Below are positions 1 to 61,057 of a stretch of 64,000 nt of DNA, piece by piece. A program made the translations under genes and the position numbers. The DNA is taken from the NCBI GenBank assembly GCA_964558675.1, contig CAZLEY010000005.1, forward strand, positions 1,519 through 65,518, in the 5' to 3' direction. Source of the stretch: an uncultured Dehalococcoidaceae bacterium. Its GTDB lineage: Bacteria; Chloroflexota; Dehalococcoidia; Dehalococcoidales; RBG-16-60-22. Every line of letters begins with the position of its first letter. Position 1 is the first letter of the stretch. The notes below the pieces were generated by a model, which worked only from the letters and a program-made list of their open reading frames with translations, was not told where the DNA came from and did no database searches.

Positions 1-191
1 ATTTTGAGGCTTGGGGAGCTATAGTCGCGAGAAGATTCCGGGGTGCAAATGAGACCTGACGTTATCGAATGTTCAACGAGCGCAAGCTGATTTGCACCCT
101 GTCCGGTTATATCATCATTATCGCTCAGGACAGAGGCTTCAGGCCAAAGCGCAAGAGTTAGCATCACCAAGATTGAGACCAGCCATTTCAT
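1..191 (-). CDS. hypothetical secreted protein, N-terminal 63 codons only (gene runs off the window start)
   Basis: ATG at 191 on the minus strand with GGAG about 8 nt upstream. The frame is open to the window edge. The N-terminus MKWLVSILVMLTLALWPEASV looks like a signal peptide. Absent from the ORF track because it is truncated. Confidence 0.3.
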   Translation of the reverse strand, partial: MKWLVSILVMLTLALWPEASVLSDNDDITGQGANQLALVEHSITSGLICTPESSRDYSSPSLK

Positions 192-642
192 TTCTGGCTC
201 CAGCGTATAGCGCGGATGAGAAACATGGCATAAATAATTTGGTTAAAATTGTAAACATTGGGAAACATTTCACCTCAGGTAGACCGAGGGTTGGTGGTGA
301 AGAGACTTTATTGTCGGCCGTCTTTCATTTGTTTCAGTTAAAGTTTAAGGAGGCCAACTTACAGTCGTGTCACAAGAAAGGCCTTAAACATTACAATAAA
401 ATCAAAATTGGGATGCAGCTTACGATAATCTGGCAGGAAGCAAATATCGGTCTTAACGTAAAGCTAATATTCGAAACAAGACGTAATAATTTGGGGCAAA
501 CTTATAAACTTAAATATTTATCAGCCAATAAGAAAGGGGGTAACCATTTTCGGGAACCCCCCTGTAGTTGCCTTGTGCTATTATCGGCTCTTTGGATTAA
601 AATATAGCTTGGATTTTATAGCCTGTACCGAATAAATACCAA

Positions 643-697: not shown

Positions 698-3600
698 CTA
701 CTGTGCCATGCGTCTCCGCCACACAAAGAAGTAGACCAGTAGCCCGGCGACGACAATGCAGGCAGCGATAATACCACCGATGATACCCCAGTTAGTGGTT
801 GGCTGCTCGACAGGTAGTGCTCCTACCGTGGGCGTGGGTGCGGGCGTAGGTGTGGGCGTGAGCGTTGGTGTCGGCGTCGGTGTCGGCGTCGGCGTCGGCG
901 TTGGTGTCGGTGTTGGTGTCGGCGTTGGTGTCGGCGTCGGTGTCGGCGTCGGTGTCGGCGTTGGTGTCGGCGTCGGTGTCGGTATCGGCAGCTTGGCCAT
1001 CAGCGCGAAATTGGTGAAGTGGCTGATTTCTGCCGATACTGTATGAGTATTGGTGTCAACCATGCTTGCCAAAGGTGCCCACTGCGAGCCATCCCAGTAA
1101 GCGATATATAGCTCGTCTTCTAAAGCACCCTCAGGCAATTTTGCAGGGTCATAGCTCATGGTCAGGGTTATTGACGGTATAAAATTTGCTCCGTCGGGAC
1201 CAAAATTGTAGGCCAATACTAAAGCCCCATTTGGAGGTGGTGCTGGCGGAGAGCTTACTGTACTAGCTGAAATTTCAAGTAGCGCATCACCCTGAGCATC
1301 AAGTATTTTCGCCCTCTTGGCAAAAGCGAGGGAGACCTCTTTATCTTGGCTCTCAAGGCTAGAGGCTCTGTAAACTACGCCCTCACCGTATATTGTCAGA
1401 GTGCCATTCAATCCGATAACACGCACTGTCCGGTAAAGCGACCCGCCGCCTGTCGATGCCGGTACCGCAGCCGGAGGTAAGCTTACCAACCCTATATGCA
1501 AATCGGTAACCGGGGGCGGGATACTGACAACAATACTGTCTGCCGGGTAGTATCCGGCCGCTTCGACATGCACGCGGTAGGACCCCGCCAGTACGTCCCA
1601 TTGGTACTGTCCATATGTCCCTGTTATCAGCGGGTTAGTATCAGGCTGCATCTGAGCCGGCATCTGGCCTGTGGGCACATTTTCCCAGCCGCCAGCTCCG
1701 TCCGGGCGCTGCAGCCATACCGAGGCACCGGCGATACGAGCACTGGTCGCGGTATCGTAAATATAGCCGGCAGGGTCGATGTAAATGTCGAAGACAACAG
1801 TGGTAACCGCACAACCATATACGGTGTAGGTGATAGTTGCCTGCCCGTGTCTCGGATAGAAAGTGGTGGTATAAGTCCAATGATGAGGAGGTCCTTCAAC
1901 CATCGGAGCGGTGATATCCGACCAACCATTGACGTGGATTAAGATATCAACACCGGTGGAAACGTTACACGAGTCGTAGGAGAAGGTGATGGGGGTGCGC
2001 CAGTAGATCGACGGCATGCCGCCGCCACTGTTCGCTGGCTCCACACCCACACCCGGCGGCAGTCCTGAACCGGTGACCCGCGTCTGGGCACTGGCTGTAT
2101 TATCGTCGTAGCGCACTTCAATATCGCTGGTGCTTATTTCGGCTACATTATTGATGACCGCGCCAACCGGGATACTCGCCGAAATAGTTACGTTTGCCGT
2201 GACGGAGCCGTGCCCGAGAGGAGCCAGATCGCCGATGTCCCAGGTCACCACCCGGCTAGTGCCATTATAACTCCCGCCGTCCGAGGCCGACACGAACTCG
2301 ACCTCAACAGGCAGTAAATCCTCGAGTGTTACATTAGAAGCTGCCGCATCACCGAAGTTGTGGTAGTGCAGCATGTAAGTCATAAGGCTACCATGATCCT
2401 TAGTAGGCGGAGCCTGCTTGGAAAGGAACAGGTTTCTTCCACTGAACTGGGGATACGTGAATAGAATAGCCATATCCGGGTTGATTAACTGCTGGTTGTA
2501 GGAGTACTGCAGGCCGATATCGCCGGTGGGGCCTTCTATGCCTACCGTTGCCGAGCCGCCATTATCGTAGGGAGGGAGATCACTCGATGTAGAGCCGGAT
2601 ACTGTTCCGAACTCGACATCCTGGTACTGGAACAGGATATTATTAGTCCCTTCGTATAGTATCGCTTCGAAGGTAATCCCCGATGTCGAGCTAGTATAGT
2701 GTTGATTATCGTGCCACTCCACGATAAAAATCCTGTTCGGTGCCGTTCCCAGTGTCTGATAGTATATCGTACCTCCGTACCAGGTCACGATATCATCCCA
2801 GAAAGGAGCGATAAACCCGTGCACTCCCGGTGACTCTGTAATCGGCTCATTAACATACTGCGTTGTTGTGCCTACCGCAAAGAGCAGACCATTATTAGCA
2901 ATAGCTACTTGACTGTAGTCTGTGCCATAGTAATTGAAAAAGAACCCGAGGGCGATGTTATCTTCAACATAATCATCGCTATCCGGGAGTACCTGTGTCC
3001 CCGTTCCGGAGATTTCAATCCAGTCATAGGTTGGCCCATCAGGCACGTTACTATCCTTGTAGGTATAACCGAACGAGTCCGGGCCACCCTGGCGACCTGA
3101 AGTAACCGTGATTGACAGGTCCTTTGTGGCTGTGCCGGAAACATTATCGGTAACCATGGCAGTAAAGGCGGTTGTGCCAAGCGCATCCGGCGTGCCGGTG
3201 ATAGCACCGGTGGCGACATCAAGCGCTGCCCATAACGGCAGAGTCCCGGCACTGATTGACCAGGTATAAGTGGGTATGCCGCTATTGGCATGCAGGGTGT
3301 ATGAGTAGGCGACGCCGACACTGCCATCGGGGAGCGAGGTGGTGGTTATGGTTGGTGCTGCAACGATGGTGATTGATAGGGCCTGCGTGGCTGTGTCGGA
3401 AACATTATCAGTTACCATGACGGTGAAGTCGGTTACGCCGACTGTGGTCGGAGTACCGCTGATAACGCCGGTTGTTCCATTACACGATAGCCCGTCGGGC
3501 AGAGCGCCGGCGCTGATTGACCAGGTATAAGGTAGCGTGCCGCTATCGGCAGCCAGAACCTGATTATAGGCGATGCTAATTTCACCATCGGGCAGCGAAG

Positions 3601-5569
3601 TGGTGGTGACAGTCAGCGGCGCCGGATTAACCGTGATTGACAGGTCCTTTGTGGCTGTGGCACCCAGGCTATCAGTTACCATGACGGTGAAGTTGGTCGG
3701 ACCACCGACTGTGGTCGGAGTGCCGCTGATAGCGCCGGTTGTTTCATTAAATAATAGCCCGTCAGGCAGAGTCCCGGCGCTGATTGACCAGGTGTACGGA
3801 GGTATGCCGTCGGAGACCGACAGGGGCTGTGAGTAAGCGACGCTGACATTACCATCGGGGAGCGAGGTGGTGGTTATGGTTGGCGCTGCAACGATGGTGA
3901 TTGATAGGGCCTGCGTGGCTGTGTCGGAAACGTTATCAGTTACCATGATGGTGAAGGCGGTCGGACCACCCACTGTGGCCGGAGTGCCGCTGATAACGCC
4001 GGTTGTTCCATTACACGATAGCCCGTCGGGCAGAGCGCCGGCGCTGATTGACCAGGTATAAGGTAGCGTGCCGCTATCGGCAGCCAGAACCTGATTATAG
4101 GCGATGCTAATTTCACCATCGGGCAGCGAAGTGGTGGTGACAGTCAGCGGCGCCGGATTAACCGTGATTGACAGGTCCTTTGTGGCTGTGGCACCCAGGC
4201 TATCAGTTACCATGACGGTGAAGTTGGTCGGACCACCGACTGTGGTCGGAGTGCCGCTGATAGCGCCGGTTGTTTCATTAAATAATAGCCCGTCAGGCAG
4301 AGTCCCGGCGCTGATTGACCAGGTGTACGGAGGTATGCCGTCGGAGACCGACAGGGGCTGTGAGTAAGCGACGCTGACATTACCATCGGGGAGCGAGGTG
4401 GTGGTTATGGTTGGCGCTGCAACGATGGTGATTGATAGGGCCTGCGTGGCTGTGTCGGAAACGTTATCAGTTACCATGACGGTGAAGTTGGTCGGACCAC
4501 CGACTGTGGTCGGAGTACCGCTGATAACGCCGGTTGTTTCATTACACGATAGCCCGTCGGGCAGAGCCCCGGCGCTGATTGACCAGGTATAAGGCGTTAC
4601 ACCGCCGGTGGCTGCCAGAGCCTGGTTATAATCAAATCCAATCTCGCCATCGGGCAGCGAAGTGGTGGTGATATACAGCGATGCCCTGGTCACGGTCACG
4701 GTGTAGGTCTCGGTAGCGATCCCGTCCTGGGCGGTGACTACCACGGTGATGGTGTTGGGCCCTTCGGCCAGGGGGATATCACCGGAAGGCGAACCGCTGG
4801 TCACGGGAACGCCGTTGACGGTGACGGTGGCATAACTATCATTTGCCGTCGGCGTGACGGTGACGGAGGTCACGGCATTGTTCACGCTGGTGGTGTAGTC
4901 GAAGGTAGCAGAAGCAAAATCCGGGGTGAGCGTGCCCTCGCTGATGGTAAGACCGATCAGGGAGGCGTCGGTGGATGGTGGCGGATTAGTTTCAACTACA
5001 CATCGTATCATCCGGTTATACGGGAGACTTTCCAGTTCCCAAGGAAACGTAGACCCCCAACTATGCCAGGAACGTCCTGCAATGGGAGGAGTATTATCAA
5101 AGGATATGCCTTCGCAATCAGGCGATTCGGTAAGTTGGTAATAACCTATAAAGAAGTTGCCGCTGGTTATCGATATGCCCAGCCCGGAAATATCCACATC
5201 CCACCATCCCAAGGTGGTGGCTATAGTGGGGACAAAACCTAGCATTGTGCCCGGTGCACCGGCAGCTCCATCATCATCATAGACACGTATCTCAAACATC
5301 TCACGGTCACCATCGGGCTGCCAGTTAGGGTACAGGTGAATACGTGCCGTGGTAAGAGTAGCCGGGTACGATGGCGGGGTGAACTCGACCGCAAATTCGG
5401 CACCTATGTCGTTTAAGGCGTCCGCTCCATTGGCCTCATCGTCGTCGTAGGCTATTTCCTGGGGTACGGTCGCTGCCACGGCATGTTGTGCCGGATATAC
5501 TGGCAGCCCCATTAATACCATCATCAGGGTTACCACCAAAGCTAAACCAACTGAAATAAGTTTCTTCAT
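698..5569 (-). CDS. giant cell-surface protein (cadherin-like beta-sandwich, six He_PIG/putative-Ig domains, DUF11-like domain, PT linker, C-terminal TM anchor)
   Basis: The ORF 698..5698 is trimmed to the ATG at 5569, which has AAGGAGAG upstream and starts the signal peptide [33 protein letters not shown]. There are six repeats of [27 protein letters not shown]...TG.ISGTP. The C-terminus is (PT)n followed by a hydrophobic helix and WRRRMAQ. Confidence 0.85.
826..988 (-). repeat. Pro-Thr dipeptide microsatellite (GGYGTY hexamer array on plus strand)
   Basis: About 27 consecutive ggtgtcggc/ggcgtcggt units encode PTPTPT... in the surface protein. The antisense GVGV ORF 756..1046 is an artefact of this array. 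Confidence 0.9.
3339..4640 (-). repeat. 531-bp near-perfect tandem repeat (about 2.4 copies) inside the surface-protein gene
   Basis: The antisense ORFs 3573..3836 and 4104..4367 translate identically. ORFs 3339..3530, 3867..4061 and 4398..4592 differ by only a few residues. The offsets are 531 and 528 nt. Each unit equals two He_PIG domains. Confidence 0.9.
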
Positions 5570-5643
5570 GTGATTACTCTCCTTTTGATTACTTTTCTTA
5601 TCAACACTGTCACAAACATTATTTGTGCCGTGGTTCGGACAAT

Positions 5644-5728
5644 AAAAAAACCGACCCTTCAATGAGGCCGGTTTCGCTATTTGCTCCCTACGGCTCAAGC
5701 GACCATATACGAGCCGTTAGATCAACGC
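5644..5728 (-). ncRNA. candidate cis-regulatory leader RNA with intrinsic terminator, copy 1 (upstream of surface-protein gene)
   Basis: The minus strand reads GCGTTGATCT, then the stem ACGGCTCG/TGAGCCGT, then AGGGAGC-aaaTAGcGAAACCGGCC, then the terminator ACCGGCC/GGTCGGT plus T7. It lies 75 nt before the ATG at 5569 and is homologous to 59034-59119. Confidence 0.45.
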
Positions 5729-5999
5729 ATCCAATTATAATAACTATAAAAGGAATTTTATTATAGTTACAGGATGTTCTATTTAGATAGCTTAATACAA
5801 ACATTACTACATGTCAACATAACTTATCTTAACTTTTCCCACCATACTACTCGTTCTCTCCTGCTTCGGATGCATATTTCTCAATGATATAGCCTGGTAC
5901 TCAGGAGGAAGGAGGCAAAGCAGAACGTAATAAGTAACAAACCATCGCTTTGTTACTCCAATCTGTCCATTGAATTATAATTCAGAACCATAACGGGTG

Positions 6000-6028
6000 T
6001 TGACAATAGAACACTAGTTCTATATAAT
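6000..6028 (+). promoter_or_regulatory. sigma70-type promoter TTGACA-17 nt-TATAAT for imuB-dnaE2
   Basis: TTGACA at 6000-6005 and TATAAT at 6023-6028 with exactly 17 nt between them. The -10 lies only 11 nt before the ATG at 6040, so the mRNA would be leaderless or nearly so. Confidence 0.7.
6007..6022. promoter_or_regulatory. LexA operator (Cheo-box type GAAC-N4-GTTC)
   Basis: TAGAAC-ACTA-GTTCTA has perfect palindromic arms and fills the promoter spacer. It sits in front of an imuB/dnaE2 cassette, which is classically LexA-controlled. Confidence 0.7.
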
Positions 6029-6039
6029 TAGTGTTTGCC

Positions 6040-7224
6040 ATGATAATTCTTTGCATTCTATTGCCCCATTTCCCCTGGCGGTGTGAGATTCGTAGACATA
6101 CCGATATCTCCGACCGTCCGGCTATAGTTGTTCAATCGAAAGACGCTGCCAGTTCACAGAAGTTAGTCATAGATTATTCCCCCGGGCTGGAAAACCTGCC
6201 GTACGGAAGTCCTCTCCAGCAGGCGCTCGCCCGCCATGATGATGTCGAGATAATCCAGGCTGATATTCCCTATTACCGCACTGCCTTTAGTGAAATACTG
6301 GACGCTCTAGAACAGGTAAGTCCGCTGGTGGAAGGTGCCGACCTGGGTTGCATTTACATCGGTGTGGATGGGCTGCAGCTCATCTACCCAGACGATAATG
6401 CCCTCGTTAATGCCGTACGGGGAGTCGTCATGGACTTTGCCCCGCAAATAGGAATCTCCGAGAACAAGTTTCTGGCTTTCCTAGCAGCGCAGCGTAACCC
6501 ACCAGGGGGCTATAATGTGCTGAACGGCAATATCGATTCTTTTCTGAAGGGGTTATCCTGCGATGTACTTCCCGTATCTCTGAAAAGCAAGAGCAAGCTA
6601 CACGGCTTCGGCATTCACACGCTGGGACAGGTAGCCGCCATGCTCCCTGGCCCGTTACAGTCGCAGTTTGGTCCCGAAGGCAAACGCATCTGGGAACTCG
6701 CTAGAGGTCTTGACGATACCACCCTCTACCCCCGGTTCATGGAAGAGGTCATTGAGGAGAGCGCTACCTTGCCTTCGGTAACTGTCTCTATGGACGCCAT
6801 TCTAACCTCGGCTGAGTCGATTCTTTTACAGGTCTTGCCAGGTATCGTCCGCAGGGGACTGGGTATCCGCAGCCTCACCCTATGGACGCGTACTTGGAAC
6901 GCGGAGAACTGGGAGCGCAGCATCAATTTCAAGGAACCTGCTATGGATGTTAGAAGTGTTGCATCCCGCCTCAAGCGTGCCCTAGAGGACTATCCCCAGC
7001 CCGGCCCCGTAGAGCAGGTGAGCGTTAAGGTCAATCGTCTGGGTTATCCGCGCGGACGGCAGAAAAGCCTCTTCCCCGATATCAGGGCTAAAGAACATTT
7101 AGCAGATGATATCAAGCAGCTGGAACTCAAACTGGGCAATCCCCAGGTATATAAGGTAAAGGAAATAGAACCATGGTCGAGAATACCGGAAAGACGCTAC
7201 GCGCTGACACCTACAAACAGGTAA
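6040..7224 (+). CDS. imuB: ImuB-like Y-family DNA polymerase homolog (catalytically inactive type)
   Basis: The N-terminus MIILCILLPHFPW replaces the DxD catalytic motif of DinB with LLP, as in ImuB. The gene sits directly upstream of dnaE2. The track's GTG at 6031 is an alternative start. Confidence 0.75.
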   Translation: MIILCILLPHFPWRCEIRRHTDISDRPAIVVQSKDAASSQKLVIDYSPGLENLPYGSPLQQALARHDDVEIIQADIPYYRTAFSEILDALEQVSPLVEGADLGCIYIGVDGLQLIYPDDNALVNAVRGVVMDFAPQIGISENKFLAFLAAQRNPPGGYNVLNGNIDSFLKGLSCDVLPVSLKSKSKLHGFGIHTLGQVAAMLPGPLQSQFGPEGKRIWELARGLDDTTLYPRFMEEVIEESATLPSVTVSMDAILTSAESILLQVLPGIVRRGLGIRSLTLWTRTWNAENWERSINFKEPAMDVRSVASRLKRALEDYPQPGPVEQVSVKVNRLGYPRGRQKSLFPDIRAKEHLADDIKQLELKLGNPQVYKVKEIEPWSRIPERRYALTPTNR

Positions 7225-7466: not shown

Positions 7467-10400
7467 ATGCCTTACGCCGAGCTTCATTGTCACAGCTACT
7501 ACTCTTTCCACGACGGCGCTTCCTCGCTGGAAGAGCTTATGGTGCGTGCTAAAGACCTCGGCTACCGCGCCCTCGCCGTTACCGAGCATGATAACCTCTG
7601 CGGAGCGATGCGCTTTGCCCAGCTTACCAAATCATTAGAGATGCATGGCATCATCGGCGCGGAGATAACGCTGGGAAACGGCTATCACCTTACCCTGCTG
7701 GCTAAGGATAGAAAAGGCTATAGCAACTTGTGCCGCCTCATCACCGCCGCCCATGCCTCCGGCGAGCGTAACGGCCCCGCTCTGCCCCCCGGACTCCTGC
7801 CAGAGCACGCCGCCGGGTTGATTGTCCTCTCCGGCTGTTCCCGGGGAGAGCTTTCACAATTTGTTGCTAAGTCGCGGCTGGCCGAGGCAAAAAACCTGAT
7901 AAAACAATACCTCGACTGGTTCGGGAAGGACAACTACTATATCGAGCTGCAACAGAACCTTGCCTACGGCGATACGGCGCGCAATACCGCCCTGCTGAAA
8001 CTGGCGCAGGAAACGGGCGCCAGAGTAGTCGCCACCGGCAACGTCCATTATCATATCCGCGAAAGGCACCAGCTCCAAGACTGCCTGGTGGCGGTCAAGA
8101 ACTGCCAGAGCCTTGAGGATACCCACCGCGAACGCCGCCCCAATTCCGAGTATTATTTGAGGTCGGAGGAAGAGATGGAAACCCTTTTCCACGCTTGCCC
8201 CGACGCATTGAAAAATACCATTGATATCGCCGAACGCTGCACTCTCGATTTAACGAAAGACTTGAGCTATATCTTCCCGGACTACCCCGCCCCGGAAGGC
8301 CATACGCCCCAGAGCTACCTGGAAAAGCTCTGTCAGGAGGCGGCTATACGGCGCTATGGCTCTATTACCCTACAGGTACAAAAGAGACTGGGAGAAGAGT
8401 TCACTCTGATTAAAAAATACAACCTGGCGGGCTTCCTGCTAATGTACCACGAGGTCATTAAGCTGGGGCGTGAAGTAATGATAGACCTGGGATTAAGCGA
8501 CCCGTCCCTCACGCTGGAGGAAAACCCACCGGGGAGGGGCCGCGGTTCCTCGGTGGCTTTACTGGTGGGGTATCTCATTGGGTTATCGCACATCGACCCG
8601 CTCAAGTATAATTTGTCATTGGAGCGCTTCCTCCCCGCCGATACCATGACCAACGTGCCGGATATTGACCTCGATTTTCCCCGCAGCATCCGGGAAGAGC
8701 TTATTCTCCGCACCCACGCCAAATGGGGCTGGCAGCACGCCGCTCTCACTGGTACCATCGCCACCTACCAGATTAAAGGAGCGGTAAGGGATTTGGGCAA
8801 GGCTTTAGGTCTGCCGGAAGCTGAAATCGACCACCTGGCCAAGCAGGCGGACTGGGGCAGCGCGAAAAAGCTCGGCAATAAGATGGAGAGAATGCCCAGT
8901 TTTAAGGAGAAAGTGGACGCCCCGGTCTGGCGGGACTTAATCCGGCTATCCGCAGAGATGGACGGCTTTCCCAAGTACGCGGGGCAGCACCCCGGCGGCA
9001 TGATTCTATCATCCACCCCTCTCATCGATATCGTTCCCGTCCAGCGGGGCGCTATCAAGGGACGTTACGTCTGCCAGTGGGACAAGGATAGCATCGACGA
9101 TGCAGGATTCGTTAAGATAGACTTTTTGGCTTTAGGTGCTCTTTCTCAACTCCAGGATGCCGTCGAGCTTATCAAAAACCGCACTGGCAAACGCATCGAT
9201 ATGTCCCGCATCGACTTTGAGGACGCTAAAGTTTACGACATGCTCTGTAAAGGGGATACCATCGGCATCTTCCAGGTGGAGTCCGCCGCTCAAATGCAGA
9301 CCATTACCCGTCTTCTCCCGCGCAATCTGCTGGACATGGCGCACGAGGTTGGGGCGGTGAGGCCTGGCGTGGGCGTCAATCACGGCGTGCAAGAGTACTT
9401 GGCGCGGCGAAGTAAGAGAAAATCCGTCACTTATGATTGCCCTCTGGAAAGGAGAGCTTTAGAGCGCACGCTCGGCGTAGTGCTGTTCCAGGACCAGGTC
9501 AACCAGTTGGCGATAGATGTCGCTGGCTTTGCCCCCAGCGAGGCCGACCGGCTGCGCCGTGCCTTTGGACGGCGGCATAATGACGAGCTTATCGAGCAGT
9601 ATCATCAAAAGTTCCTCGCCGGAGCGGTAAAAAACGGTGCAGCTGAAGAAGACGCGGAAAAAGTCTTTAAAAAGTTTAACGGGCAGTACATGTTCCCGGA
9701 ATCGCACGCCTTTGCCTTTGGAGTGACGGCTTACCAGGCATCCTGGCTAAAGTATTACTATCCTCTTGAGTTCTTTGTGGCTATCTTCAACCAGCAGCCC
9801 ATGGGCTTTTATAACCTGGAAACGTTAAAGGAGGATGCTAAAAAACACGGCATCAACGTGCTGAACCCGGACATCAATGAGAGTCGTGCTAAATGCACAA
9901 TAGAGAACGGCGCATTACGACTGGGCTTTTCCAACGTCACAGGATTAGGGGAAGCCTCCGCCAAAGTTATTGAGGAGGGTAGGAAACGGGGAATTTTTAA
10001 AACCATCGGCGAGTTCCTGGAGCGCACTGGCGTGCTGGAAGAGGTGGCGCTTAATCTGGCTGGCGCCGGAGCTTTTGATAGTCTTGAAACAAACCGCCGC
10101 AAGGTGAAATGGGAAATTGGCTTAAGGTATCGCCCTATCAATACTCAATTGCCTCTCTCGCTTCCTGTGGAGCAAGACATTGTAGAACTGGCTACACCAA
10201 CCGATTGGGAACGAATGACGGAGGAATATAATGTCCTTAGCCTTTTCCCCGCCGGGCACGTCATGGCTAAGCTGCGCTCACGTTTTAACGGGGGTTTTAA
10301 TACCAGCAAGGACATTGACAAACTACGTGACGGTGCCCCTGTAACGGCAGCAGGGCTAGTCATCCGCCGCCAGCGGCCCCACGGCAAGGTAGTGTTCATA

Positions 10401-10601
10401 ACATTGGAAGACGAGTTTGGGCATATTCCTTGCATGGTCTTCGGAAAAGTGTACGAGCGCTACGAATATACCTTCCGGTCGGCGTTCCTGATAATCAAGG
10501 GCAGACTCACCCGCCGCGAGGGCACCTGCAACGTGGTCATAAACCAAGTGAAACCGTTCAATGCTTTGGATAAAGTACCGCAGTCCAAGGATTGGAGATG
10601 A
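7467..10601 (+). CDS. dnaE2: error-prone DNA polymerase III alpha-type subunit DnaE2 (ImuC)
   Basis: 1044 aa. PHP domain N-terminus MPYAELHCHSYYSFHDGAS...VTEHDN, Pol III alpha core motifs (PDIDLDF, GQHPGGM) and a C-terminal OB-fold region. Linked to imuB. Confidence 0.9.
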   Translation: MPYAELHCHSYYSFHDGASSLEELMVRAKDLGYRALAVTEHDNLCGAMRFAQLTKSLEMHGIIGAEITLGNGYHLTLLAKDRKGYSNLCRLITAAHASGERNGPALPPGLLPEHAAGLIVLSGCSRGELSQFVAKSRLAEAKNLIKQYLDWFGKDNYYIELQQNLAYGDTARNTALLKLAQETGARVVATGNVHYHIRERHQLQDCLVAVKNCQSLEDTHRERRPNSEYYLRSEEEMETLFHACPDALKNTIDIAERCTLDLTKDLSYIFPDYPAPEGHTPQSYLEKLCQEAAIRRYGSITLQVQKRLGEEFTLIKKYNLAGFLLMYHEVIKLGREVMIDLGLSDPSLTLEENPPGRGRGSSVALLVGYLIGLSHIDPLKYNLSLERFLPADTMTNVPDIDLDFPRSIREELILRTHAKWGWQHAALTGTIATYQIKGAVRDLGKALGLPEAEIDHLAKQADWGSAKKLGNKMERMPSFKEKVDAPVWRDLIRLSAEMDGFPKYAGQHPGGMILSSTPLIDIVPVQRGAIKGRYVCQWDKDSIDDAGFVKIDFLALGALSQLQDAVELIKNRTGKRIDMSRIDFEDAKVYDMLCKGDTIGIFQVESAAQMQTITRLLPRNLLDMAHEVGAVRPGVGVNHGVQEYLARRSKRKSVTYDCPLERRALERTLGVVLFQDQVNQLAIDVAGFAPSEADRLRRAFGRRHNDELIEQYHQKFLAGAVKNGAAEEDAEKVFKKFNGQYMFPESHAFAFGVTAYQASWLKYYYPLEFFVAIFNQQPMGFYNLETLKEDAKKHGINVLNPDINESRAKCTIENGALRLGFSNVTGLGEASAKVIEEGRKRGIFKTIGEFLERTGVLEEVALNLAGAGAFDSLETNRRKVKWEIGLRYRPINTQLPLSLPVEQDIVELATPTDWERMTEEYNVLSLFPAGHVMAKLRSRFNGGFNTSKDIDKLRDGAPVTAAGLVIRRQRPHGKVVFITLEDEFGHIPCMVFGKVYERYEYTFRSAFLIIKGRLTRREGTCNVVINQVKPFNALDKVPQSKDWR

Positions 10602-11311: not shown

Positions 11312-11415
11312 AGCCTAGCAAAATGTAAGAGATTTCCTCAGGGGGATTGAAAAGGTGCTTAAAACAATATAAGATTTACTATTCTCTCGATAGCTGTGTT
11401 CTCACGGAGGGGAAA

Positions 11416-11817
11416 ATGGCCTATAAGGAAGTTATGATCGATTCGGTGAGGTATGCCGAAGTCAATGGGAATTGGGTGACGATTCTCAAGAGAAAAGATG
11501 CGGACGAGTATTTTCCAATTTACATGAGCGCCAGCCAGGCCAACATTATCAAGAAGGAATTGATACCAGGCCGGTTCGGAGACCTATGGGGATATGAAAG
11601 ATTCCTCATAGGTAGGGATATTAGCGGACATGACCTTGGATCGCTCATTATTGACGAGCCAGACGGTAACATCCGCGCCAGACTAGTTTTCCAGAAGGAT
11701 AATTCCACAATGGAAACAGAATGCCCTGTTGCGGGGGCGATTGCCTTGGCACACAGGAGAAAAGCTAGAATATGCGTTGACGAAAGCAGCTTCTACAAAA
11801 CTGGGAATGTCGAATAG
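11416..11817 (+). CDS. bifunctional-nuclease (BFN/DUF151)-like protein
   Basis: ATG at 11416 with GGAGGGG upstream. The pattern FPIYMSASQANIIKKEL...ECPVAGAIALAHRRKARICVDESSF resembles BFN-domain proteins. This is a motif-level match only. Confidence 0.5.
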   Translation: MAYKEVMIDSVRYAEVNGNWVTILKRKDADEYFPIYMSASQANIIKKELIPGRFGDLWGYERFLIGRDISGHDLGSLIIDEPDGNIRARLVFQKDNSTMETECPVAGAIALAHRRKARICVDESSFYKTGNVE

Positions 11818-12173: not shown

Positions 12174-12342
12174 CTGTTTTAACATAAATAACACATCCAT
12201 CATCTATTTCATCTCCATTAGCCTTAGTGAATGTAAAGAATCTATGTTTGAACAAAACATCGTTTAGTGCGGCGACAATTTAAAATCAGGTAAAGGCGGT
12301 ATTGACAGGAAACTATCGATAGCATAAAGTAGAAGTCAGAAA

Positions 12343-12368
12343 GGAGGCAAGCGGCCTCCGCCTTTTTT
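12343..12368 (+). terminator. intrinsic terminator
   Basis: GGAGGC-aagcg-GCCTCC followed by gcCTTTTTT. Confidence 0.5.
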
Positions 12369-12377
12369 ACGAGCTAC

Positions 12378-12422
12378 ATGGGGTTCAGGTGGTCGCCGGT
12401 TCAAATCCGGCCGCCCCGACCA
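12378..12422 (+). pseudogene. orphan 3' fragment of tRNA-Pro(GGG): anticodon loop to CCA, no 5' half
   Basis: T-arm GCCGG-TTCAAAT-CCGGC, acceptor 3' strand CGCCCCG, A73 and CCA. This implies C1-G72 and A73, as in tRNA-Pro. The upstream atGGGgt fits an anticodon loop with U33, GGG and G37. There is no matching D-arm or 5' acceptor strand. Confidence 0.6.
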
Positions 12423-12612: not shown

Positions 12613-13914
12613 ATGAAAAGGTTATTTTACGCTACTCTAATCTCGATATTCTCGATATCTCTGATACTCGGAGCGTCTCCAGCGCTCGCCCAAACCGGAG
12701 AGAATGAAAAAGAATCTCCAGTACCATCGCAAGGAAGTAGTGGTAATCAGACAATACCACAGGTATTCTCCGTTAATAACCAGTTGATGGAGGAATTGGA
12801 CGACTTGATGAGGACGCTGGAGGAGGCGGAAAACAATAACGATCAGGAGAAGGTTAAAGTGCTGCTGGAAAAAATACGGGTAATTAAAGAAGAGATAACG
12901 AGTGCCAGCATCAAGCCTGTCATTGTGGAAGAGGAACAGCCGACGCAGACGGAGCCCGTGCCGCCGACTGAAGTTAGTTCCGGTGATGTGGGACAACCTA
13001 TTGAGGTAAATCCATGCGCCGAAGTAAAAGCCCTGGAAGAGAAGTTAAGGCACTATGAAGCCTTATATGCTTTATCGGATGAGGAACTAAAGGCGAAAGG
13101 TTACCGCAGAGGTAGAGAAGAGATTAAAATCACCATAGAAAATCTTAAAAGAAGTATTGAGGAACTGAGAATTGCCTGTGAATCCGGTGGCACCAGCAGC
13201 TCAGGTGGCGGTGGCGGCGGCGGGAGGATTCCCCCGACAGAAACGTCACCGGTTGAGTTCATTCCCCCCAGACCGGCACCGGTAGCCGTTGACTCCGCAG
13301 TTGAGATAACGGATTACTACAGGTTCCGGATTGCCGAGATAATGACCGAAGAAGTGGCTGTGGACGAACAGATAGAGAACCTCAAGAAACTGAGAAGCGA
13401 GATAGACAGGTTGATTGAGGAACTGATAAAAAGCAAGGATGAAATCCGCGCTGAGGAAGTCAGTGGCCTGGTGGAAATAATAGAGGTGAGGCCGGGCGAA
13501 GTGCAAATGGACAAGGTAGTTGTAAAAACGGTTGATAAGAGAGTCATCGCCAGAGTCAACAATAAGGACGTGGAAATAAAGCCGATGGAGGCCCAGGTGA
13601 TTATTCACGATGAAAACCTGGTAATCAAAGCACCGGAGTTGTTTATTGAGAATGAGGTTTTAAGGACCGCTAATGCCGAGATTAAGCTCATGCCCAGTAC
13701 TATTGTGGAGAGAACCAGGATTGAGCCAGAAGAGATTGAATTGAGAGAAGAGAACGCCAAAGCAGTCTACAGAATCAGAACAAACGAAAGAAGGAAGCTG
13801 TTTGGCTTAATACCTTTGACAGTCGAGAATACGCTAACCGTAGACGCTGAAAATACGGAAGTAGATATAATCAAAGAAGAAAAGCCCTGGTGGGCATTCT
13901 TTACCACCAAATAA
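12613..13914 (+). CDS. secreted Glu/Lys-rich coiled-coil protein, function unknown
   Basis: Signal peptide MKRLFYATLISIFSISLILGASPALAQ, long EEL/KEE heptad-like stretches and a Gly7 linker. Confidence 0.7.
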   Translation: MKRLFYATLISIFSISLILGASPALAQTGENEKESPVPSQGSSGNQTIPQVFSVNNQLMEELDDLMRTLEEAENNNDQEKVKVLLEKIRVIKEEITSASIKPVIVEEEQPTQTEPVPPTEVSSGDVGQPIEVNPCAEVKALEEKLRHYEALYALSDEELKAKGYRRGREEIKITIENLKRSIEELRIACESGGTSSSGGGGGGGRIPPTETSPVEFIPPRPAPVAVDSAVEITDYYRFRIAEIMTEEVAVDEQIENLKKLRSEIDRLIEELIKSKDEIRAEEVSGLVEIIEVRPGEVQMDKVVVKTVDKRVIARVNNKDVEIKPMEAQVIIHDENLVIKAPELFIENEVLRTANAEIKLMPSTIVERTRIEPEEIELREENAKAVYRIRTNERRKLFGLIPLTVENTLTVDAENTEVDIIKEEKPWWAFFTTK

Positions 13915-13941
13915 TCCTTCAATCTTAATAATATAAAATTG

Positions 13942-13964
13942 GGGGGAGCTTTAATAGCTCCCCC
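13942..13964 (+). terminator. intrinsic terminator
   Basis: GGGGGAGCT-ttaat-AGCTCCCCC followed by TTTTATTT. Confidence 0.6.
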
Positions 13965-14087
13965 TTTTATTTGTCTTTTTGAACGTTATCATACTATAAT
14001 TATCTCTGAGACCTCATGTCTATCTGGCGAGAAAAGCCACATATCGTTCTTTTAACCGTTTTCTTCAGACATCTTTAGGAGGAGCCT

Positions 14088-19073: not shown

Positions 19074-19146
19074 GGGGATATAGCTCAGCTGGGAGAGCGC
19101 CGCGTTCGCATCGCGGAGGCCGGGGGTTCGAATCCCCCTATCTCCA
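19074..19146 (+). tRNA. tRNA-Ala(CGC)
   Basis: Manual cloverleaf: acceptor GGGGATA/TATCTCC with G3:U70, D-arm GCTC/GAGC, anticodon arm CCGCG-TTCGCAT-CGCGG, T-arm GGGGG-TTCGAAT-CCCCC and A73. CCA is not encoded. Confidence 0.95.
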
Positions 19147-19401
19147 CTTAATGGTTTCAAAAAGTAGAACCGGCAGAACCTACTCATCCTCGTTTCTTAT
19201 CATGTAATGGTAACCTGTAATTCGCCGTAACTATATCCCCATTTACTGTTTCCCGCTCCAGGGCATTCAGATTCTTACCTTATTTATACCAATTCCTATC
19301 TGTTATCTAGCCTTAATTGTCATAAAATATCACTTTAAGAGCATGTTTGAGGACCTCTATAACTTATGACATGCATGTTTGTAAAGTGAGGGTATGAAAT
19401 A

Positions 19402-20083: not shown

Positions 20084-21458
<1,375 letters not shown>

Positions 21459-22197: not shown

Positions 22198-24312
22198 ATG
22201 TCATATCGTGTCATCAAATCCACCTGTCGAGGATGCCATGGCGTATGTGGTGTTCTGCTTCATATGAAAGACGGGAAGCTTGTTAAAGTAACCGGAGACC
22301 CTGATAGCCCTACCTCACAGGGATATCTTTGTATCAAAGGTAAATCGGCTCCGGAGTTATTATATCATCCTGACCGGCTGAAATATCCCATGAAGAGAGC
22401 AGGTGAACGTGGGGAAAACAAGTGGCAGAGGATTACCTGGGACGAGGCACTGGATAAGGTCAGTGAGGAATTACTTAAAGTAAAGCAGAATTATGGCGTA
22501 GAATCAATTGTCGGAGCCAGGGGAACAGGCAGGCCTTACTATGTGATGTTTCACAGGTTTCTTAATTGCCTGGGCACACCTAATCGTCTCGGTTTCGCTC
22601 ATCTCTGTTATGGTCCCAGATTGGTGGCCTCGGCGATGACTTGCGGTGACCTGCCTGTATGTGATTATTACGGTTTTGGTGGAGTTAAACCACAGTGTGT
22701 GCTGATATGGGGATGTAATCTGACCGAAGTAGGGGCTGCTGACGGCATGTGTGGCTATCAGCTTACCCAGGTATTGAAGAAAGGTTCAAAATCAATAGTT
22801 GTTGACCCCAGAAGAACGAGATTAGCTGCCGGGGCTGATTACTGGATGCAAATTCGTCCTGGGACGGACGCTGCCCTGGCCATGGGTATGCTCCATGTAA
22901 TCATCAAAGAAGAGCTATATGACAAAGATTTTATCGATAAGTGGACCATTGGCTTTAGCGAGTTGATAGAGAGAGTCGAAGACTATTCTCCGGAAAAAGT
23001 AGCTCAGATTACCTGGGTTTCCGCCGACGATATAAAGGCAGCAGCGCGATTATATGCGACTACAAAACCAGCCTCTATGCAATGGGGCGTCGGCATAGAC
23101 CAGGGGGTAAATAATTATCAGACTATTCGGGCCTTACTTCTACTATCTGGTATTACGGGTAATATGGATGTTCCGGGTGGTGATGTTTTCTGGGTACCCC
23201 CATCTAACGTTGTTGTACAGGCACCGCGTCTCAATCCAGATATAGAGTTGCCAGAAAAGCTGACGCCTGAATCAAAGCGAAAAATGATTGGAGCGAGGAA
23301 ATATAAATTAAGTACGACAATACAACCCGGGGAGTTCATCAATACGGTACTCACTGAAAAACCTTATCCCATAAAGGCTCTGTTTATTATGGGTAGTAAT
23401 TTGTTAGTCGGTCACAGCGATTGTTTAAGGATGGTCCAGGCGTTGCGGAAAATCGATTTTATAGTTGCGACAGATTTATTTATGACACCAACGACTCAAT
23501 TTGCCGATATTATCCTGCCGGCTGCAAGCTGGCTGGAAACTGACGATGTACCTGACCTTCATATGGTCTGGTGTGTTACTGCCCGGTCAAAAGTGGCTAC
23601 GATAGGTGAATGCAGAGACGATAAGCAGATTATTTTCGACCTTGCGCATCGCATGGGAATGGAAGACTGTTTTCCGTGGCGTGATACCACAGAATATTGC
23701 GATTGGTTGCTGAAGGATACAGGGATGACTTTTGAGGAATTTAAGGAAATTACCATTCTCAAAGGTAAGATGCAATATAAAAAATACGAACAGGTCGGAT
23801 TCAGAACGCCTTCCGGTAAATTTGAAATTTACTGTCCAGCTTTGAAAGATATGGGGTATGACCCATTGCCTTATTATGTTGAACCTCCAGAAAGTCCCTA
23901 TTCTACGCCAGATATTTTTAATGAGTATCCATTAATAATAACCACCGGAGCCAGGATTCAGGCTTTTTTCCATACTGAGGGTAGGCAGATAAAATCGCTA
24001 CGCCAGATAAACCCGGAACCAAAGGTTGATATACACCCTGATACGGCAAGGAAATTGGCGGTAAAAGATGGCGATTGGGTTTGGATTGAAAGTCCAAGAG
24101 GCGGCAGAATAAAACAGAGAGCCAGCCTCACAGATGGTATTAATCCTGGTGTTGTGAGTGCCCAGCATGGCTGGTGGTTTCCAGAAAAAGAACCTTGGGA
24201 ATACGGATTTACAGAGTCAAATGTTAATATGCTAACACATGAGATGTCTCGTGACCCTCAAACGGGCTCAGAACCATGGCGTTCCTTTCTCTGTAAGATA
24301 TACAAGGTATAG
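22198..24312 (+). CDS. cytoplasmic bis-PGD molybdo/tungsto-enzyme catalytic subunit (stand-alone, [4Fe-4S] N-terminal motif)
   Basis: 704 aa. CRGCHGVCGV...LCIKG matches the Cx2Cx3Cx27C motif. No RR signal. MopB core motifs and the C-terminal tail FLCKIYKV are shared with 25270 and 33629. Confidence 0.85.
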   Translation: MSYRVIKSTCRGCHGVCGVLLHMKDGKLVKVTGDPDSPTSQGYLCIKGKSAPELLYHPDRLKYPMKRAGERGENKWQRITWDEALDKVSEELLKVKQNYGVESIVGARGTGRPYYVMFHRFLNCLGTPNRLGFAHLCYGPRLVASAMTCGDLPVCDYYGFGGVKPQCVLIWGCNLTEVGAADGMCGYQLTQVLKKGSKSIVVDPRRTRLAAGADYWMQIRPGTDAALAMGMLHVIIKEELYDKDFIDKWTIGFSELIERVEDYSPEKVAQITWVSADDIKAAARLYATTKPASMQWGVGIDQGVNNYQTIRALLLLSGITGNMDVPGGDVFWVPPSNVVVQAPRLNPDIELPEKLTPESKRKMIGARKYKLSTTIQPGEFINTVLTEKPYPIKALFIMGSNLLVGHSDCLRMVQALRKIDFIVATDLFMTPTTQFADIILPAASWLETDDVPDLHMVWCVTARSKVATIGECRDDKQIIFDLAHRMGMEDCFPWRDTTEYCDWLLKDTGMTFEEFKEITILKGKMQYKKYEQVGFRTPSGKFEIYCPALKDMGYDPLPYYVEPPESPYSTPDIFNEYPLIITTGARIQAFFHTEGRQIKSLRQINPEPKVDIHPDTARKLAVKDGDWVWIESPRGGRIKQRASLTDGINPGVVSAQHGWWFPEKEPWEYGFTESNVNMLTHEMSRDPQTGSEPWRSFLCKIYKV

Positions 24313-36834: not shown

Positions 36835-36836
36835 CT

Positions 36837-37496
36837 TCAGGCTCCTCTCCGTCCTTTATCGATGTAATATACTGAAGGGTCGGTATCATATTCGGGATGA
36901 AGCTGGAATCCTCTACTATTGCGTATAAGCTGCCTTACTTCGCTTTCAGGGTCGTCCAGGTCACCGAAGGTAAGTGCCCTGGCCGGGCAGGTATTGACGC
37001 AGGCAGGCGTGGCTTCACGGTCTACTCCCGGTTTTAGTCCCTTCGCCAGCCCGGCATCAATCCTTTCCATGCAGAAATTGCACTTCTCCGTCGTACCGAC
37101 AGTGTGGGGGTATAACCGCTTGCCGGCTTTTTCAAACTCAGTCAGTTCGTAGCCGGGGAAATATCCCGTATCCTTGTCCTTTGAGAGGAAAATCCTGTTC
37201 TGGTAAGGACAGGCGATTATGCAATATCGGCAGCCAACGCACTTGTCTTGGTCAACCCAGACTATCCCATCTTCTCGCTGTTGCGTGGCATTGGTAGGGC
37301 AGACCTTGACGCAGGGCGCATCCTTACAGTGGTTGCACCGCACCGGGTACGTCGTCATTTCTTCGGCTGTCTCTTCCCAGGCAATCAACCTTGACCAGGT
37401 TATGCCGAGAGGAAGGAAGTGCTCGACCCTGCAGGCGGCTACGCAGCCATGACACCTCATGCACTTGCTTAAGTCTATGACCATTCCCCATCTCAT
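36837..37496 (-). CDS. 4x[4Fe-4S] electron-transfer subunit (PsrB/DmsB/NrfC type)
   Basis: Four Cys clusters: CMRCHGCVAAC, CNHCKDAPCVKVCP, CVGCRYCIIACP and CNFC...CVNTCP. Confidence 0.9.
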   Translation of the reverse strand: MRWGMVIDLSKCMRCHGCVAACRVEHFLPLGITWSRLIAWEETAEEMTTYPVRCNHCKDAPCVKVCPTNATQQREDGIVWVDQDKCVGCRYCIIACPYQNRIFLSKDKDTGYFPGYELTEFEKAGKRLYPHTVGTTEKCNFCMERIDAGLAKGLKPGVDREATPACVNTCPARALTFGDLDDPESEVRQLIRNSRGFQLHPEYDTDPSVYYIDKGRRGA

Positions 37497-58719: not shown

Positions 58720-59033
58720 CCTCTACCTCAGCCCTGATAACCTGGTGCCTTTTCATATATTAACTGAAGTTAATATTACTTAACAATATGGCGAATATGT
58801 AAAAAATGTAGGGATATTCACCAGATTGTTATCCATGATGCCACCCATAAATACTTCATGCGTGATATAAAACAATAGAGGTAAATGAAAGTAATGTTAA
58901 TAAAAGAATTTGACTTTTTAGGTAATGTAGAATACCATACTGTAGCATTACTATATTCAGATATGAATAACAAGGAGTTAACTAAGAAGGAAATAAAACA
59001 TTAGCAAGTAGCCGGGGAAAACGTTATTGGGGG

Positions 59034-59119
59034 GTGTTGAGCTGTCGTCCTGGAGTGGTTACTTAGATGACAGGGAGCCAGTAGTGAAACCGACCCGAAG
59101 AGGTCGGTTTTATTATTTT
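59034..59119 (+). ncRNA. candidate cis-regulatory leader RNA with intrinsic terminator, copy 2 (upstream of secreted-protein cluster)
   Basis: GTGTTGAGCT, then the stem CTGTCG/TGACAG, then AGGGAGC-cagTAGtGAAACCGACC, then the terminator ACCGACC/GGTCGGT plus TTTTATTATTTT. Homologous to 5644-5728 on the opposite strand. Confidence 0.45.
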
Positions 59120-59263: not shown

Positions 59264-60355
59264 TTGAAAAAGAAAATTTTCAGCATAGTGTTCGCTCTTG
59301 TTCTCTTACTTACCCTGACTCTGGTGCCGGTAACGCCGGCGGCGGCAAACAGTGTTTCCTCTTCGACAATGGTATTCCAGGGAAACACGGATTTTCCCCT
59401 GACGTATAACAGCAGTGATGGAACATACAGCGGAGTTATACCGTGCGTGGTGGACGGTGGTTATGATGTCTATGCCAAAGAGGGGGCTACGGCATGGTTT
59501 GGTGACCAACCTGGAACTGTTCCTGTCTGGACTGCGGTTACCATCGCCGGAAACGATGCCTGGCCAACATGGGATCTCGATACGCCAGATTGGTATCAGT
59601 ACAGTCTGAACCTTTACGAGGACAATGGTGTCCAGAAGTGGGCTATAAGTAACCACCCTGGTGCAACTGTAGACGATCCATGGTATGATACAGCGGCTTG
59701 GGGGTCAACTGGTAAACAGGCATGCGGAGTTCCCATGTCGGGGACGATGGACTGGAATGCCATGCATGCTATGGAAACGGACACAGGAGCGTATCTGACG
59801 GCCTGTGGAGGTACTCCGGAAATCCCAGGAGGGGCCGCAACTAAAGGCGGTGGCGCCGGGTACTGGGATATGGACTGGAGCTGGGGCAGCGAGGCAGTGC
59901 CGCTGCAATTTCCGGGATTTGACGTAACGGTGACTGGCAGCAGCTCGACTGATTATCAGGTAACCCTGACTCCGGCTGCCGCTGGTGCCACGCAGTTGAC
60001 CGTTGAAGTACCGGATATCGTGGCCATCTCGGCAAACCCGACCAGCATTGACTTCGGCTCTTTGGTTCCGGGGCAGACCTCCAGCACATACGACATTGTT
60101 GTAACGAATGTCGGCACTCATGAAGTTGATGTAAATGCGGATGTAAGCGTATCTTCTGCCCTATTCTATAATAACTTAGAGCTTAAGAATACTGCTTCTG
60201 GTTCCTATAGCTATCGGGATTGGGTTGGCATAATACTCGGTTTGGACATGGATGCTTTTGAGACGCTCAGAACCAGAATAACCGTACCATTGAACTACAC
60301 TCCATTGGGTGTTGAGACGGCCCAATTGACTTTTACAGCCACAGGTACACCATAA
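59264..60355 (+). CDS. secreted protein with C-terminal Ig-like beta-sandwich domain
   Basis: TTG start with AAAGGAGAAA upstream. Signal peptide MKKKIFSIVFALVLLLTLTLVPVTPAAA. C-terminal IDFGSLVPGQTSSTYDIVVTNVGTHEV. Confidence 0.65.
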   Translation: MKKKIFSIVFALVLLLTLTLVPVTPAAANSVSSSTMVFQGNTDFPLTYNSSDGTYSGVIPCVVDGGYDVYAKEGATAWFGDQPGTVPVWTAVTIAGNDAWPTWDLDTPDWYQYSLNLYEDNGVQKWAISNHPGATVDDPWYDTAAWGSTGKQACGVPMSGTMDWNAMHAMETDTGAYLTACGGTPEIPGGAATKGGGAGYWDMDWSWGSEAVPLQFPGFDVTVTGSSSTDYQVTLTPAAAGATQLTVEVPDIVAISANPTSIDFGSLVPGQTSSTYDIVVTNVGTHEVDVNADVSVSSALFYNNLELKNTASGSYSYRDWVGIILGLDMDAFETLRTRITVPLNYTPLGVETAQLTFTATGTP

Positions 60356-60421: not shown

Positions 60422-61057
60422 ATGAAGAGATTTATAGGAATACTGGCAGTGATGGTTTTGGTGCTGGCGCTGGCCAGCCCGGTGCTGGCTGCCAGCCTGG
60501 GTGTAAGCCCCAGCCATGTGGAAATTGAAATTCCGGGTGATGGCAGCGCCACGGCTGATTTACAGGTGCACTACTTTAGCGGCGATGTTCAGGTAAGCCT
60601 GGTAGATATACCGCTCCGGGTAGAGCCGGAGGTACTGCACGTTGACGCTCTCGACGAGCCGGTAGATGTTCAACTTACCATCTACGGCGATGAGTCACTC
60701 GGCTCACAGGTTTACGAGGGTTTTATAAAATTCCTCGGCATGAGCGGCGAGACGATCGCCATCGCCGTGCAGGTCAGAGCCAAGATCACCAACATAGTGG
60801 AAGGCCAGCCGGTGCCGGAAGCTCTGCCGGAAGAGACTCCAGCACCTGGAGAGACTCCAGCGCTAGAAGCTACTCCCGAGGTAATACCACCGGAATCATC
60901 ACCGTCAGCAACGCCTCCAGAACCGCAAGCTACAGAACCGACGGACGGAGTGGAAGGCCTTTCGCTGAACATGGTGATTCTCATCGCCGGAGGCCTGGTA
61001 TTCGTGGGCCTGGTAGTGCTTGCCATAAGCCTGGCAGTTAGGAGGAGACGGTACTGA
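60422..61057 (+). CDS. secreted, C-terminally membrane-anchored protein with Pro/Glu-rich stalk
   Basis: Signal peptide MKRFIGILAVMVLVLALASPVLAA, a beta-sandwich-like core, a PEALPEETPAPGETP linker, then a TM helix plus RRRRY. Confidence 0.65.
   Translation: MKRFIGILAVMVLVLALASPVLAASLGVSPSHVEIEIPGDGSATADLQVHYFSGDVQVSLVDIPLRVEPEVLHVDALDEPVDVQLTIYGDESLGSQVYEGFIKFLGMSGETIAIAVQVRAKITNIVEGQPVPEALPEETPAPGETPALEATPEVIPPESSPSATPPEPQATEPTDGVEGLSLNMVILIAGGLVFVGLVVLAISLAVRRRRY

Follow-up and report, generated by a model that had tools for sequence, protein, structure and literature searches.

The window analysed here, a 64-kb stretch of DNA, contains two short, mutually similar leaders that stand in cis and on the same strand ahead of genes for surface or secreted proteins, and the question raised by this arrangement is what kind of regulatory element they represent. 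The preliminary description of the locus had read them as a riboswitch-like leader with a terminator, or else as a protein-dependent attenuator, and had found no known riboswitch class to which they could be assigned. The resemblance underlying that reading is genuine: between 5728-5644 of the minus strand (copy 1) and 59034-59119 of the plus strand (copy 2), 61 of 85/86 bases are identical, and the global alignment of the two copies scores 23, as opposed to -11.7 +/- 4.7 (maximum 5) for 2000 shuffles; likeness by chance is excluded. A 21-nt core (AGGGAGCNANTAGNGAAACCG) occurs at exactly two sites in the 64-kb window when three mismatches are allowed, against an expectation of 0.03.

The class of both elements is settled by the Rfam covariance models. 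Copy 1 matches RF01786, the c-di-GMP-II family, with 57.5 bits (E=4.1e-10) at 5740-5657(-), and copy 2 with 59.9 bits (E=8.3e-11) at 59021-59104(+), each match covering model positions 1-84 of 84 and exceeding the curated gathering cut-off of 53.5 bits by just 4-6 bits. Canonical RF01786 is also the best clan member for both copies in Rfam clan competition, and a gathering-threshold scan of the 64-kb window returned, besides these two hits, only a third, a tRNA-Ala(CGC) at 19074-19147. The leaders are additional members of a well-known riboswitch family and no new class. The preliminary description had itself suggested an Rfam scan and had taken a known family to be at odds with its reading; both copies do fall in one, above its gathering score, and the alternative of a protein-dependent attenuator becomes superfluous with this assignment. 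Its cyclic dinucleotides, put forward as candidate ligands, fit the family well, and its broader picture of a riboswitch-like leader and terminator, present twice before surface and secreted-protein genes, survives intact. A permissive scan of the whole window (E<=1) yielded no further riboswitch or leader family. Readings as a T-box, a PyrR element, a GEMM-I riboswitch, a group I intron or a repeat element were ruled out because they lack an Rfam match at E<=1: the c-di-GMP-I/GEMM-I model (RF01051) gave zero matches in the window even at that level, and for a group I intron after either aptamer Rfam shows no intron-family match in the window, a terminator being found there instead. The practical value of the assignment lies in annotation. 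A routine scan against Rfam would be enough to label the two elements. Overall, we read both leaders as c-di-GMP class II riboswitches with transcription-terminator platforms, each most likely an ON switch, and would put the probability of this reading at about 85%.

The aptamers can be laid out as follows; structural facts on c-di-GMP-II were taken from reviews (PMC7288161, PMC7583470, PMC4316175).

5657..5740, minus strand: copy 1 aptamer, c-di-GMP-II (RF01786), from the covariance model, helices checked base by base
5731..5740, minus strand: copy 1 P1 5' strand, UUAUAAUUGG, AU-rich, pairing with 5667-5657 in 8 pairs with two interruptions
5729-5727, minus strand: copy 1 P2 5' strand, UGC, with partner GCA at 5684-5682, from the model alignment and pair list
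5726-5721, minus strand: copy 1 kink-turn bulge and G.A pairs, GUUGAU, with partner GGA at 5687-5685
5688..5720, minus strand: copy 1 P3 hairpin, with 5' strand 5720-5712, 16-nt loop 5711-5696 and 3' strand 5695-5688
5704-5699, minus strand: copy 1 pseudoknot 5' strand, GGUCGC, in the P3 loop
5670..5677, minus strand: copy 1 pseudoknot 3' strand with the ligand-site adenines, GCGAAACC, from the base-by-base check
59021..59104, plus strand: copy 2 aptamer, c-di-GMP-II (RF01786), from the covariance model, helices checked
59057..59062, plus strand: copy 2 pseudoknot 5' strand, GGUUAC, in the P3 loop, with partner GUGAAACC at 59084-59091

A base-by-base check in the family register shows standard pairs throughout P1, P2, P3 and the pseudoknot in both copies. 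The pseudoknot, which joins the P3 loop (UGGNCNC) to the 3' strand (GNGNAACC), has six standard pairs per copy; those made by loop 5704-5699 in copy 1 are G-C, G-C, U-A, C-G, G-C and C-G. The c-di-GMP-II structure 3Q3Z is listed as a standard k-turn, with a 3-nt bulge followed by tandem G.A/A.G between P2 and P3 (PMC4316175), and the corresponding sequence signature is present in both leaders, as UGC-GUU-GA opposite GGA-GCA in copy 1 and GGU-GUU-GA opposite GGA-GCC in copy 2; in copy 2 a G replaces the A that the consensus has in GGA. P1 differs markedly in strength between the two. That of copy 1 is a weak duplex (-0.6 kcal/mol, rank 52 of 65), and that of copy 2 comprises 9 pairs worth -8.5 kcal/mol, with rank index 1 of 65 (a single non-cognate strand being the stronger partner).

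The sequence boxes noted earlier can now be placed on this architecture. The box G(C/T)GTTGA(T/G)CT, present as GCGTTGATCT in copy 1 and GTGTTGAGCT in copy 2, begins in the terminal part of P2, runs through the bulge of three bases and the G.A pairs of the kink-turn, and ends with the opening two pairs of P3. The stem-loop after it is the P3 of c-di-GMP-II, whose loops do contain UGGU...CUU in both copies, and in the identical AGGGAGC the two final pairs of P3 are followed by the GGA of the kink-turn and then by the first bases of P2's 3' strand. In the ensuing N-A-N-TAG-N-GAAACCG, likewise read in both copies, TAG-N-GAAACCG holds the pseudoknot 3' strand and the two ligand-site adenines, with the P1 3' strand next. 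These boxes are real; what the preliminary description lacked was P1, the pseudoknot, the kink-turn reading and the direction of the switch. Its limits also need correction. Given that the RF01786 matches are full-length, the element begins 12-13 nt further upstream than had been proposed, at 5740 and 59021, and the 5' strand of P1 lies in precisely those omitted bases.

The hairpin stem had been described as differing between the copies at three consecutive pairs in a compensatory manner. The compensation holds, and the count was too low: of the eight pairs that P3 has in the family register, five are changed on both sides (copy 1/copy 2: A-U/G-C, C-G/U-A, G-C/C-G, C-G/U-A and U-A/C-G). With so large a share of the stem doubly changed, the two copies are best seen as diverged paralogues under structural constraint rather than as the product of a recent duplication.

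Covariation among homologues, which had been proposed as a check, could be assessed on metagenomic relatives. Scanning metagenome contigs for the 21-nt core yielded at least 120 loci, with at least 113 distinct sequences. As the search pattern fixes 18 bases of the core, and the 5' anchor used for the relatives fixes GA..T, conservation at those positions is no evidence and only the remainder of the element is informative. An alignment of 65 standard-length relatives on the family structure, pseudoknot included, shows P3 to be 95% paired, with six of its eight pairs changed on both sides, P2 to be 94% paired and the pseudoknot 96%. The covariation score of this 65-sequence alignment is 0.377, as compared with 0.171 after shuffling (0/500 reach the real value) and at most 0.135 when partners are slid, and RNAalifold predicts P2 and P3 from the relatives' alignment unaided. 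The sole pseudoknot pair that is free on both sides covaries (A-U 58, G-C 45, G-U 7 and unpaired 0 among the relatives listed); the other 3' positions of the pseudoknot are fixed by the search pattern, and for those the loop side alone is informative. P2, P3 and the pseudoknot are thereby supported in at least 113 distinct relatives. P1 required a different approach. Tested by columns it is 54% paired in the relatives' alignment, a failure that arises because the flanks do not align; when strands are compared directly, cognate P1 strands of the relatives bind at -4.43 kcal/mol vs -3.09 kcal/mol for non-cognate ones, and 0/5000 permutations give a value as low. RF01786 lies above threshold in 14 of the 20 relative loci that were rescanned.

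Several contigs (L102, L083, L007, L115 and L119) were seen to carry two c-di-GMP-II copies each, and in L102 (13935-14177) the copies stand in tandem, about 220 nt apart. Tandem class II copies before surface-anchor genes have been reported (PMC9481103), and the arrangement in L102 is like those.

Both aptamers run directly into an intrinsic terminator.

5641..5675, minus strand: copy 1 intrinsic terminator, with 5' arm 5675-5665, loop 5664-5658, 3' arm 5657-5647 and U7, from the terminator scan and folding
59081..59119, plus strand: copy 2 intrinsic terminator, with arm AAACCGACC at 59087-59095, loop 59096-59101 and arm GGUCGGUUU at 59102-59110, from folding

In copy 1 a simple terminator scan reports 11 pairs, 5 of them G-C, and the 41-nt segment folds at -15.3 kcal/mol (z=-3.9). 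The same scan missed the terminator of copy 2, which folds at -16.5 kcal/mol in a 42-nt segment or -19.8 kcal/mol in a 40-nt segment (z about -3.8) and whose U-tract is interrupted (UUUUAUUAUUUU) and reaches 59119. The stems recorded earlier, ACCGGCC/GGTCGGT in copy 1 and ACCGACC/GGTCGGT in copy 2, with a G-U in the one for an A-U in the other and a U-run behind, are confirmed, and so is the residual similarity (ATTxTCxGxAAC) past the terminator.

The position of these terminators with respect to the aptamer is what points to a switch. The terminator 5' arm (G/AAACCGRCC) is built in both copies from pieces of the aptamer, namely the 3' strand of the pseudoknot, the two ligand-site adenines and the bases with which the P1 3' strand opens, and the 3' arm begins at the final base of P1. 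A strand shared in this way makes aptamer and terminator mutually exclusive, and binding of the ligand should hence prevent termination. Left unconstrained, both leaders have a minimum free energy fold that includes P2, P3 and the terminator and lacks P1, at -33.0 kcal/mol for copy 1 and -36.5 kcal/mol for copy 2, vs -5.0 and -16.9 kcal/mol for the nested aptamer fold. As the favoured fold holds the terminator without P1, transcription is expected to stop by default, and read-through should follow when the ligand stabilises the aptamer, as in an ON switch. The arrangement is found again among the relatives: CGGTT, the complement of AACCG, is found 12-55 nt past GAAACCG in 84 of the 110 relatives listed, and several others have near variants.

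The mechanism that we propose would thus run as follows. In the absence of ligand, AAACCGRCC would pair downstream into the intrinsic terminator, and transcription would end 72-145 nt before the gene. With c-di-GMP, the predicted ligand, the same strand would be kept inside the aptamer: GNGA and CC would pair with the P3 loop in the pseudoknot, the two adenines between them would lie at the ligand site, and the bases after the pseudoknot strand would form the 3' strand of P1. Formation of the aptamer would then block the terminator, allowing RNA polymerase to read into the surface-protein genes.

This scheme has close counterparts in Clostridioides difficile, where there are four class II riboswitches, all of them ON switches. 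In the absence of c-di-GMP, Cdi2_4 has transcription terminated before pilA1; Cdi2_3 precedes the adhesin gene CD2831, Cdi2_1 precedes the adhesin gene CD3246 and another precedes cmrRST (PMC6366702, PMC11477304). The copies in the window share the P1-P2-kink-turn-P3 and pseudoknot architecture of the c-di-GMP-II family (RF01786; C. acetobutylicum 3Q3Z; C. difficile Cdi2_3 and Cdi2_4), together with an aptamer-competing terminator, a predicted ON logic and adhesin-like downstream proteins (PMC6366702, PMC11477304). They depart from the c-di-GMP-II consensus in having A for C in the 3' strand and U for G in the loop and, in copy 1, a weak, AU-rich P1. Other systems are alike in only some of these respects. 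Cdi2_1, the allosteric group I ribozyme before CD3246, joins the same aptamer class to a surface-protein gene (PMC11477304, PMC9481103), its platform being a group I intron whereas that of the window copies is a plain terminator. The c-di-GMP-I ON switch Bc2 of Bacillus thuringiensis, located before cap, which encodes a collagen adhesion protein, is likewise a c-di-GMP-dependent antitermination leader before an adhesin gene (PMC4933901, PMC6366702), but its fold (GEMM-I) is unrelated to that of the copies described here.

It may be asked whether both leaders are still operative. One or both might be decayed, non-functional relics in which the terminator alone matters, as a constitutive attenuator. 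Copy 1 lends some substance to this view, as its P1 is very weak and, with an aptamer fold of -5.0 vs -33.0 kcal/mol, it could be a poor or dead switch; moreover, both scores lie close to the threshold, and non-functional members are known in C. difficile, where only 11 of 16 predicted c-di-GMP riboswitches are reported to be functional (PMC6366702). Decay, however, would be hard to reconcile with conserved loop, kink-turn and pseudoknot bases that are all intact in both copies, or with differences between the copies that are compensatory and not disruptive. L063, the leader nearest to copy 1 among the matches listed, also retains the fold, at 58 bits (the protein downstream of it being unrelated to the adhesin-like protein of the window). 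We consequently regard loss of function as very unlikely.

A further question concerns the ligand, for the two leaders share one departure from the family consensus. Where RF01786 has GUG-C-AACCG, both copies have GNG-A-AACCG (GCGAAACCG and GUGAAACCG), the relatives carrying the same string by construction of the search. In both copies, as in 79 of the 110 relatives listed, the loop base that pairs with the changed base is U where the consensus has G; the loop change from G to U thus compensates that from C to A, and a U-A pair is retained in the pseudoknot. Neither the two adenines nor the CCG after them differ from the consensus in either copy. The ligand contacts reported for 3Q3Z are A13, A14, U37, G39, U60, A61, C68, A69, A70, C71, C72, G73 and A74 (PMC7288161). 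If CAACCGA is used to bring the 3Q3Z numbering onto the Rfam consensus, an inferred correspondence, the change falls at C68, whose equivalent would be A in both copies. With the same mapping, U37, G39, A61, A69, A70, C71, C72 and G73 would be kept in both copies, and the equivalent of A13 would be G in copy 2, at a column where 29 of the 65 relatives have A and 29 have G.

Rfam already splits c-di-GMP-II variants at these three bases. The c-di-GMP-II-GAG (RF03169) and GCG variants of clan CL00127 have the same fold as the window copies, and the consensus of RF03169 ('GAG') reads GGCGAGACCG, with loop GGU. With it the window copies have the loop GGU in common, and also the A in the middle of the diagnostic triplet, but they keep the following A: they read G-A-A, and not the G-A-G that is diagnostic of RF03169 (the canonical family being G-C-A). 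The G-A-A subtype therefore stands between the canonical family and the G-A-G variant. It is seen (GNGAAACCG, loop GGU) at 5670-5677(-), at 59084-59091(+) and in the metagenomic loci L004-L123, and is abundant in metagenomes, with at least 120 loci.

One could accordingly envisage a subtype of the c-di-GMP-II fold with a different ligand or affinity, recognizing for instance another cyclic or a linear dinucleotide. The presence of GNG-A-AACCG in both copies and at least 113 relatives, the separation of variants at the same three bases in Rfam, together with the three relative sites (among 20 loci rescanned) that score best with RF03169, and the place of the changed base among the 3Q3Z contacts (PMC7288161) all lean in that direction. 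If it were true, G-A-A would mark a distinct specificity or affinity class, tuned to another dinucleotide or concentration range in uncultured anaerobes. The change is nonetheless compensated, with the U-A pair preserved and the two adenines and next CCG intact; the canonical model wins the Rfam clan competition, and the gene context is of the classic c-di-GMP type. A subtype of this sort is in our view very improbable, and a change of specificity through G-A-A unlikely; we take the change to be variation within the family. Finally, the notion of a duplicated terminator or a protein-dependent attenuator (e.g. PyrR-like) unrelated to any small-molecule aptamer, to which the terminator in both copies and the Pribosyltran-family genes upstream of copy 2 might lend colour, is scarcely credible in view of a similarity that runs 60 nt 5' of the terminator, with covarying P2, P3 and pseudoknot, of full-length RF01786 matches and of the lack of a PyrR, T-box or other leader family at E<=1.

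Under the preferred reading of two c-di-GMP class II ON switches, the genes presumably controlled are the following.

698..5569, minus strand: gene 1, a surface protein of 1623 aa that begins with a signal peptide and ends with a TM helix and RRRMAQ
59264..60355, plus strand: gene 2a, 363 aa, with a signal peptide and no Pfam family
60422..61057, plus strand: gene 2b, 211 aa, beginning with a signal peptide and ending in a P/E-rich linker, a TM helix and RRRRY

The distances of 75 and 145 nt from leader to gene given previously are essentially right, at about 74 nt (ATG 5569) and 144 nt (TTG 59264). The 1623-aa protein contains six He_PIG domains, together with Cadherin-like, DUF11, NIDO and Big_9 domains and a (PT)n stalk. 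Searched for in reference genomes, the 363-aa protein has a single, distant homologue, with 49% identity over residues 5-237, at 3001-3711 of L001 (CAYSKI010000003.1, a planctomycete MAG of the Pirellulales), and no riboswitch lies upstream of or near it. The locus after copy 2 had been taken for a cluster of three secreted-protein genes. The first two genes do encode signal-peptide proteins, and the number is in doubt: the third ORF, 61120-61539(+), starts at TTG and encodes 139 aa, with a weak FN3-like Pfam match and an end rich in Trp (HWWWGWWHWFF); it is absent from the JGI gene calls, and between it and gene 2b lies a weak hairpin resembling a terminator (61065-61081(+)). The copy 2 operon may comprise two genes only.

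The C-terminal part of the 1623-aa protein (698-1000(-)) and the 211-aa protein (60422-61057(+)) end on the same plan, a Pro-rich stalk followed by one TM helix and a short Arg-rich tail, and they may thus be anchored in a similar way; LPXTG is absent from the C-terminal ~100 residues of the former and from the latter. We infer that the Ig-repeat protein and the small secreted or anchored operon are likely to be adhesion genes of an uncultured anaerobe, predicted to be induced by c-di-GMP, and that the two loci would be co-regulated. This would extend the known tie between high c-di-GMP and the expression of surface adhesins. Signal peptides are frequent among the first downstream ORFs in 91 relatives, as judged by crude calls. 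The families found there include response regulators (7), Laminin_G_3 (5), DUF5658 (5), PilT-type ATPases (3) and pilins, as well as Ig, PKD, Big, He_PIG, DUF11 and RCC1 proteins. Adhesins, pili and response regulators are also the themes of the C. difficile class II regulon. Genes for GGDEF, EAL or HD-GYP proteins were not seen among the window ORFs scanned.

Promoters for the two leaders can be placed only tentatively. Around copy 1 there are a TTGACA at 5817-5812 without a good -10 and a perfect TATAAT at 5765-5760 without a -35, and a promoter scan of the locus returned only sites near 5974-6006. Copy 2 has a candidate in TTGACT-17-TACCAT (58910-58938, 9/12 match). A second promoter-like sequence, TTGATA-16-AATAAT (59137-59164(+), 10/12), falls between the copy 2 terminator and the start codon, and could allow riboswitch-independent expression, the switch being bypassed.

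Some further features of the window deserve mention. Sub-threshold Rfam matches to tmRNA (12271-12422(+), 16.7 bits) and to an L20 leader (13868-13977(+), 29.4 bits vs a cut-off of 58.7) are probably due to chance. Pfam has no match for the ORFs at 12613-13914(+), 20532-21458(-), 92-607(+) and 11347-11817(+), of 156-433 aa, and the 433-aa ORF at 12613-13914(+) has no NCBIfam match either. A promoter matching the consensus at 12/12 positions (6000-6028) precedes two polymerase genes that run divergently to the copy 1 locus, one imuB-like and of the Y family (6031-7224), the other for an error-prone polymerase of the dnaE2 type (7467-10601(+)). Elsewhere there are four paralogous molybdopterin oxidoreductases of the DMSO-reductase family (22198-24312, 25270-27369, 33629-35875(-) and 40458-43202), accompanied by NrfD and 4Fe-4S partners (35896-37496(-)) and a Crp/Fnr-type regulator (37828-38493), and the gene content of 22198-43202 is that of an anaerobic respirer.
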